Assembly: GCF_046105845.1 (NCBI RefSeq)
Contig: NZ_CP151004.1
DNA length: 64,000 bases
Source: Escherichia coli
GTDB taxonomy: Bacteria; Pseudomonadota; Gammaproteobacteria; Enterobacterales; Enterobacteriaceae
Direction: 5' to 3' (one strand)
The translations under genes and the position numbers were made by a program. The notes below the pieces were generated by a model that searched no databases, was not told the DNA's origin, and saw nothing but the letters and a program-made list of their open reading frames with translations. Below, in pieces: positions 34,711 through 40,069 of the stretch; within the stretch, counting starts at the first letter, position 1, and each line of letters starts with the position of its first letter.

Positions 34711-35697
34711 TTAACCGAAGCGAACATCTCGTCCATGCGGTTCATCGAGATCCTGCCACGGACCAATTGAAATAATCCCCGTAGGGTTGATGGTCTTATG
34801 GCTGCGGAAGTAGTGATTACGGATGTGATCGAAATTGACAGTTTCGGCAATCCCCGGCATCTGGTAGATATCGCGCAGGAAACCATACAGATTCAGGTAA
34901 TCGCTGATGCGGTGCTTATCACACTTGAAGTGGGTCACATACACTGGATCAAAACGGACCAGCGTGGTCCACAGGCGAATATCGGCTTCGGTTAGCTGAT
35001 TGCCGGTCAGGTAACGATGCTGGCCTAAAATCTGCTCCAGTCGCGCCAGCGATTCAAACACTTTCGCCACCGCCTCGTCGTAAGCTTGCTGGCTGGTGGC
35101 AAAACCAGCTTTATACACGCCGTTGTTAACGGTGTCATAAATCCAGCCGTTAAGTTCGTCAATTTTCGTTTGCAGGGCTGGTGGGTAGTAATCACCCGCT
35201 TTCGCGCCCAGCGCATCAAACGCGGTATTGAACATGCGGATGATTTCCGCTGATTCGTTGCTGACGATGGTGTGGTTCTTTTTGTCCCACAGTACGGGAA
35301 CAGTAACTCGTCCGCTGTAGTGTGGATCGGCGTGGAGATAAAGCTGATACAGAAATTCATGTTGATAGAGCGTATCTCCGGTTGCTCCCGGAAAACTGTC
35401 ATCAAAGGTCCAGCCGTTTTCCAGCATCAGCGGGTTCACTACGGAAACGGAAATAAACGGTTCCAGTCCTTTGAGTTTACGCATGATCAGCGTGCGGTGC
35501 GCCCACGGGCAGGCGAGTGAAACATAGAGATGATAACGATCTTTCTCTGCGGTAAAACCGCCTATGCCAGTGGGGCCAGGAGTGCCATCGGCAGTGAGCC
35601 AGTTACGAAATGCGGAAGCTGAACGTTGAAATTTACCGCCGGTGGATTTGGTATCGTACCAGGTGTCATGCCAGACGCCGTCAATCAGTTGACCCAT
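34711..35697 (-). CDS. yqjG: glutathionyl-hydroquinone reductase (Xi-class GST)
   Basis: ORF track 34711..35718; likely start MGQLIDGVWHDTWYDT at 35697, preceded by GGAGGAG. Confidence 0.88.
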   Translation of the reverse strand: MGQLIDGVWHDTWYDTKSTGGKFQRSASAFRNWLTADGTPGPTGIGGFTAEKDRYHLYVSLACPWAHRTLIMRKLKGLEPFISVSVVNPLMLENGWTFDDSFPGATGDTLYQHEFLYQLYLHADPHYSGRVTVPVLWDKKNHTIVSNESAEIIRMFNTAFDALGAKAGDYYPPALQTKIDELNGWIYDTVNNGVYKAGFATSQQAYDEAVAKVFESLARLEQILGQHRYLTGNQLTEADIRLWTTLVRFDPVYVTHFKCDKHRISDYLNLYGFLRDIYQMPGIAETVNFDHIRNHYFRSHKTINPTGIISIGPWQDLDEPHGRDVRFG

Positions 35698-35716
35698 TTT
35701 TCTCTCCTCCAATAGC

Positions 35717-35748
35717 AAAAACGAGGAGCTTCCTCCTCGTTTTTTATC
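35717..35748 (-). terminator. rho-independent terminator after yqjF
   Basis: AAAAACGAGGAGCTTCCTCCTCGTTTTTT symmetric hairpin. Confidence 0.7.
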
Positions 35749-35766
35749 GTTAAGTATAGCGCGTGC

Positions 35767-36159
35767 TTACCACTTTTTATTCAGCAGGCGGTCGATGCTA
35801 TACGCGCCCGGACCGGTAATTGCCAGTAGCAGGAATCCGCCAGAAATTGTCAGGTTTTTCATGAACATCAGCGAGTTGACGCCTTCAGCAAAGTTGCTGT
35901 GAAATAAAAATGCCGTCAGCAGCGTAAAGCCCGCAGTAAACAGGGCTGTGGTGCGAGTCAGGAAACCAAACAGGATTGCCAGACCACCACCAAACTCAAG
36001 CAGAATCACCAGCGGCAGCATAAAACCCGGGACGCCCATCGCTTCCATATATTGTTGGGTACCAGAGTAAGCGGTAATTTTTCCCCAGCCGGCCGTAATG
36101 AACAGAATCGGCATTAAAATGCGCGCTACCAGTACACCAACATCTTCTAATTTTTTCAT
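35767..36159 (-). CDS. yqjF: DoxX-family membrane protein
   Basis: ORF track 35767..36249; likely start MKKLEDVGVLVARIL at 36159 (130 aa). Confidence 0.8.
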   Translation of the reverse strand: MKKLEDVGVLVARILMPILFITAGWGKITAYSGTQQYMEAMGVPGFMLPLVILLEFGGGLAILFGFLTRTTALFTAGFTLLTAFLFHSNFAEGVNSLMFMKNLTISGGFLLLAITGPGAYSIDRLLNKKW

Positions 36160-36344
36160 CATACTCTCCACTGCGCCACTCAGGCTGCTGATTGTTTTTT
36201 TGTGCAAGGGCGCGGTATTAGCGTCGTTGCTGTCGATGGAGAGAATCATAAACGTGGTGAATGATGATTGTTAGCAAGGAAAACTGTCAAAAATCTTCAA
36301 AAAATTTGAGGGATAAGGCCGGAATGGCTCCGGCCAGAGGGAAG

Positions 36345-36644
36345 TTAACCGCGAAGCTGTTGCTGCTTGAGGGTCGTTTTAACCAGACGCCAGGCGCTCC
36401 ATACGCCAAAACCGCGTCTGGCCCAGCGGACCAGCATATTAGGATGGCGAATCGTCCAGATCGCCATCACGCTACTGCCAACCAGCGCCCAGGAGCGCAG
36501 ACTTAGCAGCATATTCCAGCGACGATCGTAAGCGCCTGTTGCCTCCAGCCATTCACGACGACTGGCGGAAAGATCCAGCCGTTGTTGCTGGATCTGGCTC
36601 AGCAGTTGCGCCTTACGTCGTTCACGTTCGACTTTACTGCTCAC
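36345..36644 (-). CDS. yqjK: small uncharacterised protein YqjK
   Basis: ORF track 36345..36746; the 99-aa product likely initiates at a GTG (V in ...SPVSSKVERERRK), from memory of the K-12 product. Confidence 0.6.
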   Translation of the reverse strand: MSSKVERERRKAQLLSQIQQQRLDLSASRREWLEATGAYDRRWNMLLSLRSWALVGSSVMAIWTIRHPNMLVRWARRGFGVWSAWRLVKTTLKQQQLRG

Positions 36645-37038
36645 GGGACTCCTCCTCGAGCAGCTGCCGATCGTTTGCCAGCTCATGGCGTGTATGGCGC
36701 AGCAGGGTGGATTTACGCGATTTACGTAACGTCCAGATACCGCCAATCAGTGCCAGTAGCAGCAACACCACGGTGGTGGCAATCATCGCATTCAGGCGAT
36801 ATTGCGGATCAACCGCCCAAATAATCAGCACCATCAGGCTCATAAGACCAAATGCAGCGAAAAGCATCGTCAGGCCCAGCATCAGTAAAAGTTGAAAGAG
36901 ATTCGCTTTTTCCTCTTCCAGCTCCACCACCGCCAGCCGCAGACGTGTTTCCACCATTTCAACCATGATGGAAACAATTCGCTGCCCGATGCCCAGAACG
37001 CTTTTACCGGGCCCTTGCGCGTGATGAGTGTCCGCCAT
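36634..37038 (-). CDS. yqjE: DUF1469 inner-membrane protein
   Basis: ORF track 36634..37107; likely start MADTHHAQGPGKS at 37038 (134 aa). Confidence 0.75.
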   Translation of the reverse strand: MADTHHAQGPGKSVLGIGQRIVSIMVEMVETRLRLAVVELEEEKANLFQLLLMLGLTMLFAAFGLMSLMVLIIWAVDPQYRLNAMIATTVVLLLLALIGGIWTLRKSRKSTLLRHTRHELANDRQLLEEESREQ

Positions 37039-37040
37039 AA

Positions 37041-37346
37041 TTAACGACGCGACAGCAGAACGCCGAGCACTACACCGATTGCAGCGCCAATGCCCACGCC
37101 CGTCCATGGATTTTCACGCACATACTCATCGGCACGCGCCGCCGCGACACGGGTTTGTTTGGCGATGGCATCACCGGTTTCACCCAGGCGATAACGGCTC
37201 TGTTTCAGTGCCTGCTCCGCTTTGCTACGAATCTTACTCAACTCTTCTTTCGACTTCTCGCCAGATGAGCTAAGTACCTCTTCCAGCGTATCGGAAAGGG
37301 ATTTCAACTCAGCACGCAGATGTTCCGTAGTGTGTTCTTTCGACAT
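37041..37346 (-). CDS. yqjD: ribosome-associated membrane protein (ElaB/YgaM/YqjD family)
   Basis: 101-aa ORF with C-terminal TM helix (GVGIGAAIGVVLGVLL). Confidence 0.8.
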   Translation of the reverse strand: MSKEHTTEHLRAELKSLSDTLEEVLSSSGEKSKEELSKIRSKAEQALKQSRYRLGETGDAIAKQTRVAAARADEYVRENPWTGVGIGAAIGVVLGVLLSRR

Positions 37347-37383
37347 AGTTTTCTCCAGGTGAGTAAGTAGTGACTATTGTGAG

Positions 37384-37752
37384 TTAGTAGTCGCGCGCTT
37401 CCAGCTTTTTCAGCTCTTCCTGCGCTTCTGCCAGTTTCCGTTCGCGTTTGGCAATCTTATCGGCATCGCCTTTTTGCTTCGCCTCGGCTAAATCTTGCTG
37501 GCGTTCCGCCACCTCATCTTTCTGCTTTGCGATTTTCTTCTGATGATCGGCACGCAGCTGGCTATCTGAACAGTTGGCCCGGACTTCACTCAGGGCTTTA
37601 TTCAGACCGTCAATACGATTCTGGTTTTGGTGTTTTTCGGCATAGCTGATCTCCTTAAGGATATTTTGCTCCTTTTCCTGACACAGGGTAGTGGCATAAC
37701 TACCGGCACTAAGAGCAAAAAGAGAAACAGCTAAAGCGATGCGGTATTTCAT
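37384..37752 (-). CDS. yqjC: DUF1090 periplasmic protein with signal peptide
   Basis: ORF track 37384..37767; likely start MKYRIALAVSLFALSAGSYA at 37752. Confidence 0.75.
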   Translation of the reverse strand: MKYRIALAVSLFALSAGSYATTLCQEKEQNILKEISYAEKHQNQNRIDGLNKALSEVRANCSDSQLRADHQKKIAKQKDEVAERQQDLAEAKQKGDADKIAKRERKLAEAQEELKKLEARDY

Positions 37753-37898
37753 TCTTGAACCTTCCATTGTGATTCGGACCTATTACAAAGGAACGATTGT
37801 CCAGACAACGAAGCGGTAGTGTTAACCACCGCCTCATTAATCATAGACAGTTACGGTGAAATCACCAAAGTCAGTGATATGTTTCGGATAACAGGAAG

Positions 37899-38282
37899 TT
37901 ATCCGAAGCGATGAGAGTTATCCCGCAACCGGGTCAGCCACTGCATAGCCTGACTATTATTGTCCTGCTGTGCAATGATGTAGCCATGGGGCAATGTTCT
38001 GTCGAGGACCGCTTTTGCGGCGGCACTCTGGTCGCTGGAGTCAAAGGTAATTAACAGAGTGTCATTTTTGGGGGTGATACTTTTGAAAGGAATGCCGTGA
38101 GCGTCAAGGTGATGCCAGATTGAAAAACCGTCTGGCATCGTTGTCCCTTGATGAACGGCACGAATCGCCAGCGTAGACTCTTGCTGGCGAACCGCGGACC
38201 AGGCCAGCAACAATGTGCCGACCAGAAGTAAAACAGCGCCGGACCAGGCTAGCTGGCGAAGCGACATGCGAGGTATTTGCAT
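37899..38282 (-). CDS. mzrA: modulator of EnvZ/OmpR (MzrA)
   Basis: 127-aa ORF with N-terminal TM anchor. Confidence 0.8.
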
Positions 38283-38285
38283 CCC

Positions 38286-38948
38286 TTACCCCCGATTTCC
38301 ATATTTCTTTTTCCATAACACGACCAGAGAACCTGCCAGGCCAAACACCAGCAGCACCACCGGGAGCAGCATCAGGCATGACATCAGCTGGTCCTCGTAC
38401 TTTAAAAATACCGGCGTTTTGCCGAGCATGTAACCCAGAGTTGTCAGGATCAATACCCACAGCAGACCGCTCATCCAGTTGAAGAACTGAAAGCGCGCGT
38501 TATTCAGCCCTGATAATCCGGCAATCGTCGGCAGCAGTGTTCTGACAAATGCAATAAAGCGACCAATTAACAGCGCCGATAAACCGTGTTTATGAAAAAG
38601 ATGGTGTGCGCGTTGATGATAATGCGCGGGTAAATGAGATAGCCAGTTTTGTACTGTGCGGGTATTGCCCAGCCATCGCCCCTGAATATAGCTGACCCAG
38701 CAACCGAGGCTGGCGGCAACGGTCAGCAGCAGAATCGTTTGCGGATAGCCCATCGCGCCTTTCGCAATCAATACGCCGACCAACACCAGTAAACTGTCGC
38801 CCGGTAAAAAGGCCGCCGGAAGCAAGCCGTTTTCAAGGAACAAAATTACAAACAAGACAAAATACAACATGCCAATCATCGACGGATTGGCCAGGGTTTC
38901 AAAATCCTGCGCCCACAGGGCTTGCAGCAATTGGGTCAAAAGTTCCAT
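38286..38948 (-). CDS. yqjA: DedA-family inner-membrane protein
   Basis: 220-aa multi-TM ORF. Confidence 0.85.
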
Positions 38949-39292
38949 TCATTATTCCTGGTGAATCGGTTAACGCCACGCTGGTTTTAAAAGATGCACT
39001 ACCGCAATGTTATTGCTGTTTTGGTATGTTTTGCGGGTTTGATACATCAACACAGCCTGAACTATTCCCTGTTAAATCGTGAGATAAGAAAGCATTCAAA
39101 AGCATAAATTCAAATTGAATCTAATTGTAACAAAGGTCAACGTTGTTCGTTATCAAAATTACATGTCCGTGGAGTCTGATTTTGCTGATTGCAGGGGAGG
39201 GTGGCGAGAGGATTTACACAGGCTGACACTTTATACTTTTCGCTTACCGACGAAGCAAACAGGCGCATTGCAGCGCCTGTCGGATGGAAATT

Positions 39293-40069
39293 TCATTTGC
39301 TGCCGCTGGTGGCCGTATCGAGATGCACTACCGGGTTTTCTGCGAACAGATAGCGGTCGGCATTGAACTCGAAATCGTCGCTGGTTTCGTTAAATAACAT
39401 GATTTTGGTGTTTTCCAGATGCTGCCACATTGCCAGCTTAGCAGCATGAGGATCTTTGCGAATTAACGCCTTGAGGATCTGATCGTGGTCATCGCACCAG
39501 TTATCGACAGTACGGGCATCAATGTGTTCGTGTAGTTTTTTCCAGTACGGGTTATGGCTACGCTGGGTCCACATTTTTTCAACGATAGCCGCCAGGGCGG
39601 AGTTCTGCGTCGCCAGGGCTACCTGAATGTGGAACTGCAAATCCCACTCGGAATCACGGAAGCATTGTTCGCCGCGCGCCTGCTCCTGGATGGCCATCAA
39701 TTTCATGATGTCCTGTTTCGTTACCTGAGTTGCCGCGAACTCGGCAATATTACTTTCGATGAGCTGGCGAGCCTGGAGCAACTCAAACGGACCGTAATTG
39801 GCGAATTCCATATTATTGTCCGCCGCCTGCTGATGACGCGGCTGGTTGGAAACCACGTGAATACCTGAACCTTTACGCACCTCCACATAGCCTTCAACTT
39901 CCAGCATGATGATGGCTTCACGAACTACCGTACGGCTGACGTTCTTTTCATCGGCAATAAAGCGCTCAGCAGGCAGTTTATCACCCACCAGATAGACGCC
40001 CTGTTCGATGCGCTCTTTCAGATCAGCGGCAAGTTGTTGATACAAACGGCGTGGTTCAGTGATTTCCAT
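39293..40069 (-). CDS. exuR: GntR/FadR-family repressor of hexuronate utilisation
   Basis: ORF track 39293..40084; likely start [12 protein letters not shown] at 40069 (258 aa). Confidence 0.9.

Follow-up and report, generated by a model that had tools for sequence, protein, structure and literature searches.

The window analyzed here, a 64,000-nucleotide (nt) stretch of Escherichia coli DNA (NCBI RefSeq assembly GCF_046105845.1, contig NZ_CP151004.1), contains at positions 36345-37767 four conserved coding regions, all on the minus strand, and there is little doubt that these are, taken as a whole, best explained as the E. coli yqjCDEK operon with the start sites given in the databases. The original prediction had recognized here a compact cluster of yqjC, yqjD, yqjE and yqjK consisting of open reading frames (ORFs) of about 100-134 codons, and both the gene identities (RefSeq annotation and Pfam) and the sizes (122, 101, 134 and 99 amino acids (aa) in RefSeq) are borne out. 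Its further assessment, that the start sites in this cluster are the least certain coding boundaries, does not hold: conservation across 82 loci, ribosome-binding site energies, codon-position variation and N-terminal peptides of YqjD and YqjE back the annotated starts. The locus, its promoters, its control by CsrA and the role of YqjD in ribosome hibernation have already been published; this is an ordinary, characterized operon, and with its promoters, CsrA sites and the mechanism of YqjD on record it is better characterized than had been implied. The useful outcome is thus a clean-up, with well supported annotated starts and dismissible extensions of the mechanical ORF track of the window. 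The coding regions are as follows.

37384-37752, minus strand: yqjC, 122 aa, ATG start (RefSeq)
37041-37346, minus strand: yqjD, 101 aa, ATG start (RefSeq)
36634-37038, minus strand: yqjE, 134 aa, ATG start at 37036-37038 (RefSeq)
36345-36644, minus strand: yqjK, 99 aa, GTG start at 36642-36644 (RefSeq)

The predicted end of the cluster at 37767 is an ATG of the ORF track, and the actual yqjC start is at 37752. With a 1751-base query across the region, matches of at least 95% identity were obtained in 5422 of 5426 complete E. coli genomes (best match 99.8%), and the YqjD sequence is 100% identical to the RefSeq protein. The yqjCDEK operon of E. coli K-12 (b3097-b3100) is the same locus, with 99.8% DNA identity to RefSeq E. 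coli and an equal gene order, and the differences are strain-level substitutions only. The RefSeq gene order is exuR-yqiM-yqjA-mzrA-yqjC-yqjD-yqjE-yqjK-yqjF-yqjG, so that the four genes are flanked by mzrA, yqjA and yqiM on one side and by yqjF and yqjG on the other. For comparison, the locus was taken from 80 Enterobacteriaceae species, with start-codon counts made over 82 loci; all four genes were located in each of the 80 species.

The four proteins match Pfam families far above the curated cut-offs, which shows that the cluster is real rather than a chance set of ORFs. YqjC belongs to DUF1090 (E 1.7e-34, 118.6 bits against a gathering cut-off of 24.4); it contains two cysteines, C24 and C61, and by simple hydropathy, which was also used for the membrane segments of the other three proteins, a hydrophobic, signal-peptide-like N-terminal segment at residues 5-23. 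The pattern of its N-terminus, MKYRIALAVSLFALSAGSYA, is conserved across the 82 loci, and YqjC is predicted to be a secreted periplasmic helical protein with a signal peptide. YqjD matches DUF883 (PF05957; E 4e-13, 49.5 bits against a cut-off of 25.4) over residues 8-60 and DUF883_C (PF19029; E 1.4e-15), a glycine-zipper tail anchor, over residues 72-101, with a single C-terminal membrane helix (hydrophobic peak 81-99 of 101 residues). It is therefore a C-tail-anchored inner-membrane protein of the ElaB/YqjD/YgaM (DUF883) family, and its predicted membership in the ribosome-associated ElaB family is supported by the DUF883 match. Because its score against the NCBIfam ElaB equivalog model (NF007709) is below the cut-off (92.5 vs 139 bits), YqjD is a paralog of ElaB and not ElaB itself. 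YqjE matches Phage_holin_3_6 (PF07332; E 5.6e-21, 75.2 bits against a gathering cut-off of 28.4) and contains two membrane helices (hydrophobic segments 58-76 and 84-102), and YqjK matches the YqjK family (PF13997; E 9.3e-25, 87.3 bits against a gathering cut-off of 28.1) and contains one weakly hydrophobic segment. Both are membrane proteins whose genes in every case lie beside a YqjD-type gene, and they probably act with its product. As had been stated, YqjC, YqjE and YqjK are uncharacterized; they still have no known function (PMC10746276). A solved structure does not exist for any of the four proteins; a match to an engineered cytochrome trimer structure (E 1e-4) lacks a significant stretch and is taken as chance.

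In a separate observation, the PADLOC model LeoC weakly resembles YqjD in its C-terminal half (E 7.4e-5, 21 bits), which suggests that LeoC may end in a DUF883-like tail-anchor module. YqjK appears in public gene predictions in versions of 99, 109, 113, 123, 124 and 155 aa, and is entered in a few sources as 'Cell division protein FtsH', an evident mis-annotation.

The aligned start codon is ATG in all 82 loci for each of yqjC, yqjD and yqjE. At the corresponding position of yqjK, 45 loci have GTG, 23 have ATG and one has TTG; among the remaining 13, a start codon is found one codon away in 12, and one locus (L026) is misaligned. The yqjK GTG had been placed inside a longer open frame, and this is correct: the frame runs for 133 codons from TTG 36746, a 34-codon extension, and includes ATG 36686, which would yield a 113 aa protein. 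Longer starts also exist for yqjE (ATG 37107, 157 aa, a 23-codon extension) and yqjC (ATG 37767, 127 aa, a 5-codon extension), and yqjD has no upstream start codon within its open frame. Conservation of the upstream codons had been named as a check, and its outcome is that the extensions are interrupted by stops or frame changes in other species. An in-frame stop is located 0-3 codons upstream of the yqjK start in 51 of the 82 loci and 11 codons upstream in an Escherichia species that is 96% identical. The frame relation of yqjE to yqjD differs between species, with the extension of yqjE changing frame in 27 of the 82 loci, so the 23 codons are not conservable as protein. Codon -23 of the yqjE frame results from reading CCR-TGG, the Pro-Trp codons of yqjD, out of frame.

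This codon, at position 37107, is ATG in the present sequence and GTG in the closest RefSeq E. coli, and the difference is a synonymous third-position change in the proline codon of yqjD (CCA vs CCG before TGG). The case illustrates that a silent change can create an apparent alternative start.

The distribution of substitutions along the 80-sequence alignment points the same way. Each annotated gene shows an excess of variation at third positions; in yqjC, for instance, the value is 1.26 for the third position vs 0.52 and 0.31 for positions 1 and 2. Over the 34 codons that precede the yqjK GTG, the variation is highest at third positions of yqjE (1.34), equivalent to second positions of the yqjK frame, and over the 23 codons before the yqjE ATG it is highest at third positions of yqjD (1.20). 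The yqjK and yqjE extensions do not evolve as coding sequence in their own frames. Moreover, distant YqjK homologs (26-45% identity), collected by an exhaustive representative search, consist of 91-101 aa and align from residues 1-10.

Published data on translation initiation also bear on these starts. In the N-terminomics Table S1 of TRAINSPOTTER (PMC13245402), the YqjD peptide MSKEHTTEHLR, with Ribo-RET and INRI-seq support, and the YqjE peptide MADTHHAQGPGKSVLGIGQR are both classed as database starts. In an INRI-seq supplement, yqjC has only an out-of-frame ATG at +109, seen in a single replicate, and yqjE and yqjK have no entry, and the Salmonella riboproteogenomics supplements (PMC11005335) mention none of the four genes. 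Initiation data supporting the longer starts, which would have spoken against the shorter ones, were not found; the data retrieved favor the annotated starts. The database starts, including the yqjK GTG, are correct and well determined, and for the GTG itself the evidence, which is comparative and sequence-based only, makes what we regard as a strong case.

The ribosome-binding sites upstream of the annotated starts are located as follows.

36649-36657, minus strand: yqjK ribosome-binding site GAGGAGGAG, 4 nt upstream of the GTG
37353-37356, minus strand: yqjD ribosome-binding site GGAG, doubling as CsrA site BS4
37760-37767, minus strand: ATGGAAGG block, the yqjC ribosome-binding site and CsrA site BS1 (AUGGA, 37767-37763), which holds the ORF-track ATG

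The energy of pairing with the anti-Shine-Dalgarno (anti-SD) sequence at the annotated starts is -11.8 kcal/mol for yqjK, -6.4 for yqjD, -6.2 for yqjC and +1.1 for yqjE; at the longer starts it ranges from -3.1 to +1.9 kcal/mol, with no usable ribosome-binding site. The yqjK value is exceptional because only 0.6% of the positions in a 5-kb region reach -10 kcal/mol or lower. Across species, the median energy is -9.3 kcal/mol for yqjK (69 loci) and +0.7 for yqjE (81 loci), and no ribosome-binding site was detected for yqjE in any of the 81 loci. The GAGGAGGAG element is encoded by Glu-Glu-Glu codons near the C-terminus of YqjE. At the ATGGAAGG block, ATGGA is present in 74 of the 82 loci and GGA in all 82, and CACAATGGAAGGTT hardly varies among 80 sequences. 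Only 35 of the 82 loci have the upstream ATG in frame with yqjC, because the length of the spacer varies by one base; this ATG is part of the CsrA and ribosome-binding block and not a start codon.

Of the two short overlaps that had been described in the cluster, the one between yqjE and yqjK stands (11 nt, 36634-36644), whereas yqjD and yqjE are separated by a 2-nt gap; a yqjD/yqjE overlap would require the unsupported start at 37107 and, at 67 nt, would not be short. Between the yqjD stop TAA (37041-37043) and the yqjE ATG there is a gap of 2 nt here. Of the 82 loci, 55 have this distance, 25 have 1 nt and the remaining two have -1 nt. The yqjE stop is within 11 nt of the yqjK start, the most common junction being RTGA, in which the start codon and the yqjE stop share bases; the 11-nt overlap is found instead of RTGA in Escherichia and the Citrobacter amalonaticus group. 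The geometry of coupled cistrons, a conserved stop within a few nt of the next start, is found at both the yqjD/yqjE and the yqjE/yqjK junctions. Because yqjE lacks a ribosome-binding site and retains the conserved 1-2 nt spacing, its coupling to yqjD is inferred: yqjE would most likely be translated, through termination and reinitiation, by ribosomes that have just finished yqjD. Translation of yqjK, in turn, might be tied to that of yqjE via the overlapping stop and start and via the ribosome-binding site that is within yqjE codons. That yqjE is probably made only by coupling to yqjD should be of use to those who work on this operon.

The close arrangement of yqjD, yqjE and yqjK is also seen at distant loci. 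In six loci that encode distant YqjK homologs in unrelated genomic contexts, a Phage_holin_3_6 gene (129-135 aa) is located directly upstream of the YqjK gene (94-98 aa) in all six. Upstream of the holin-like gene, five of these loci have a further gene that encodes about 101-109 aa (in the sixth, L085, the contig ends before it); DUF883 hits are recorded for two of the five and no Pfam hit for the other three. The spacing at the junctions in these loci lies between a 14-nt overlap and a 9-nt gap, and the triad and its tight junctions hold in distant homologs at 26-34% identity. A DUF1090 gene is found beside the triad in none of the six. In L082 (CP025084.1, 1-5291), the order exuR-yqjA-mzrA and yqjDEK-yqjF-yqjG-LysR is kept, yqjC is absent and a gap of 218 nt takes its place, so that yqjC was either inserted in the Enterobacteriaceae lineage or lost in the lineage of L082. 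The conserved core is yqjDEK, and the same type of yqjDEK synteny has been reported by Njenga et al.

Related systems show a comparable organization. In the PA3040-PA3042 operon of Pseudomonas aeruginosa, a DUF883 (YqjD-like) gene precedes one that is YqjE-like and another small one, the reading frames being less than 15 bp apart; the operon is induced by stationary phase and envelope stress (PMC11302039). This operon lacks a DUF1090 (yqjC) gene, PA3042 reportedly lacks a recognized domain and, unlike YqjD and YqjE, PA3040 or PA3041 is reported not to inhibit growth upon overexpression. The E. coli yqjD paralogs elaB and ygaM encode proteins with the same DUF883 N-terminal domain, a C-terminal glycine-zipper anchor and ribosome binding, and elaB, as is yqjD, is repressed by CsrA. 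According to Njenga et al., the YqjD type with yqjE-like and yqjK-like neighbors is the archetype, and ElaB and YgaM resulted from later duplications. A speculative possibility, which we put forward only tentatively, is that YqjD, YqjE and YqjK form a single inner-membrane complex of fixed ratio, the stoichiometry of which is set by translational coupling; YqjE and YqjK would then be the missing partners that control when YqjD plugs ribosomes at the membrane, with yqjC as a later add-on in Enterobacteriaceae.

Transcription of the operon has been studied previously. A sigma-S promoter of yqjC(DEK) has been mapped by primer extension and in vitro transcription to a start at -82 from the yqjC ATG, and a second one, for yqjDEK, is located inside yqjC, with a start at -105 to -101 from the yqjD ATG (PMC10746276). 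CsrA represses translation through BS1 (AUGGA), which covers the yqjC ribosome-binding site and has been footprinted and mutated, and through BS2-BS4 before yqjD (PMC10746276). The published start sites and the GGA motifs of the CsrA sites are all found at the expected positions of the window.

37834-37846, minus strand: sigma-S promoter of yqjC, with C at 37846, the -10 hexamer TATGAT at 37845-37840 and the start at A37834
37447-37451, minus strand: internal start zone of yqjDEK, sequence CCAAA, inside yqjC
37420-37418 and 37402-37400, minus strand: CsrA sites BS2 and BS3, GGA motifs at the 3' end of yqjC, published at -50 to -80 from yqjD (PMC10746276)

CTATGMT is present in the zone from -130 to -60 in 72 of the 82 loci. 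The GGA motifs upstream of yqjD are located at -74, -56 and -10. A GGA within 25 nt upstream of the yqjC ATG and another at -16 to -4 of the yqjD ATG are found in all 82 loci, and the conservation of the BS2/BS3 zone is weaker, with zero to three GGA motifs across species. As published, binding of CsrA to the GGA motifs over the yqjC and yqjD ribosome-binding sites represses translation during growth. The E. coli YqjD protein has been shown to bind ribosomes and inhibit translation; in stationary phase it holds ribosomes at the membrane and blocks their exit tunnel (bioRxiv 10.1101/2024.08.16.608256).

Other explanations of the region are conceivable to different degrees. That the longer starts of the ORF track (TTG 36746 or ATG 36686 for yqjK, ATG 37107 for yqjE and ATG 37767 for yqjC) are the true ones, or are used together with the annotated ones, is highly improbable and strongly disfavored already. 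The long frames are indeed open in this window, some public YqjK gene calls are longer (113, 123 and 124 aa), and the ATG at -5 of yqjC is in frame in E. coli as well as in 35 of the 82 loci; against this, the long starts have no usable ribosome-binding site, the yqjK extension is closed by in-frame stops in most of the loci and even in a close Escherichia relative, the yqjE extension does not keep its frame, variation in the extensions tracks the codon positions of the upstream gene, the N-terminal peptides match the short YqjE and YqjD, and distant YqjK homologs are devoid of the extension. We find it hardly credible that YqjE is a true holin of the phage type and that the four genes are left over from a lysis or toxin cassette instead of forming a housekeeping stress operon. 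No PHROG phage family matches YqjE at E<=0.01, yqjE is a core gene of E. coli (5422 of 5426 genomes), syntenic in 80 species and always paired with a DUF883 gene and a YqjK gene rather than an endolysin, and base variation in its region is that of ordinary purifying selection, even though the protein is named 'phage holin family' in Pfam (PF07332) and RefSeq, has two membrane helices like class II holins and arrests growth when overexpressed (cited in PMC10746276 and PMC11302039). The 'phage holin' label derives only from the name of the Pfam family and is likely misleading.

It is somewhat less easy to dismiss, although still unlikely, that the four genes are largely independently expressed, each with its own transcripts and ribosome entry, and that their spacing reflects genome compaction without coupling. 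An internal promoter has been proven for yqjD, more start sites ahead of yqjE and yqjK are predicted by global mapping, the protein levels of YqjC and YqjD differ up to 20-fold (all PMC10746276), and yqjK has a strong ribosome-binding site of its own. However, yqjE is translated despite the lack of a ribosome-binding site in any of the 81 loci, the distance between the yqjD stop and the yqjE start is kept at -1 to 2 nt in all 82, and the yqjE/yqjK junction is within 11 nt, mostly RTGA, and likewise tight in distant homologs. Several points do weigh against the yqjCDEK operon with its database starts and coupled genes as described here. The additional transcription starts upstream of yqjE and yqjK predicted by global start-site mapping (cited in PMC10746276) make some independent expression of these two genes possible, and translational coupling is inferred from the geometry of the junctions. 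Neither yqjK nor yqjC is present in the TRAINSPOTTER table (PMC13245402). YqjK gene calls are 99 aa long in the large clusters, and calls of 113 and 123-124 aa are also present, that is, the gene callers are inconsistent although the biology is clear. Finally, the long frames are open in E. coli over 34 codons for yqjK, 25 for yqjE and nine for yqjC, and, judging from sequence alone, minor proteoforms may be produced from them.

Turning to minor features of the region, a GC-rich hairpin is located just after the yqjK stop.

36317-36335, minus strand: hairpin GGCCGGA-GCCAU-UCCGGCC, 7-bp stem

The minus-strand fold of 36255-36350 has an energy of -20.3 kcal/mol (z-score -2.46). The hairpin was passed over by the terminator scan because the T-run does not directly adjoin it; it may act as a weak terminator or as a stem that stabilizes the RNA between yqjK and the promoter region of yqjF. 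The pattern scan for promoters and terminators yielded no more sites than in shuffled sequence and missed the published sigma-S promoters, and an Rfam scan of 35500-39300 produced no RNA family match at E<=1. Plus-strand ORFs of 80-118 aa across the region were considered and rejected; they have no Pfam match, and variation within them tracks the minus-strand frames.

Among the neighbors of the operon, yqiM (38970-39053, minus strand), just upstream of yqjA, is a RefSeq small protein gene of 27 codons. For yqjF (35767-36249, minus strand), the mechanical ORF encodes 160 aa, and RefSeq places the start at 36159 for a protein of 130 aa that begins with MKKLE; this ATG is aligned in all 81 loci. 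INRI-seq in K-12 reports an in-frame GTG 12 nt upstream of the yqjF ATG (5 replicates). This GTG is located within a conserved cTGGAGAg ribosome-binding block and is replaced by CTG in 59 of 81 species, and for these reasons it is probably not a conserved start.

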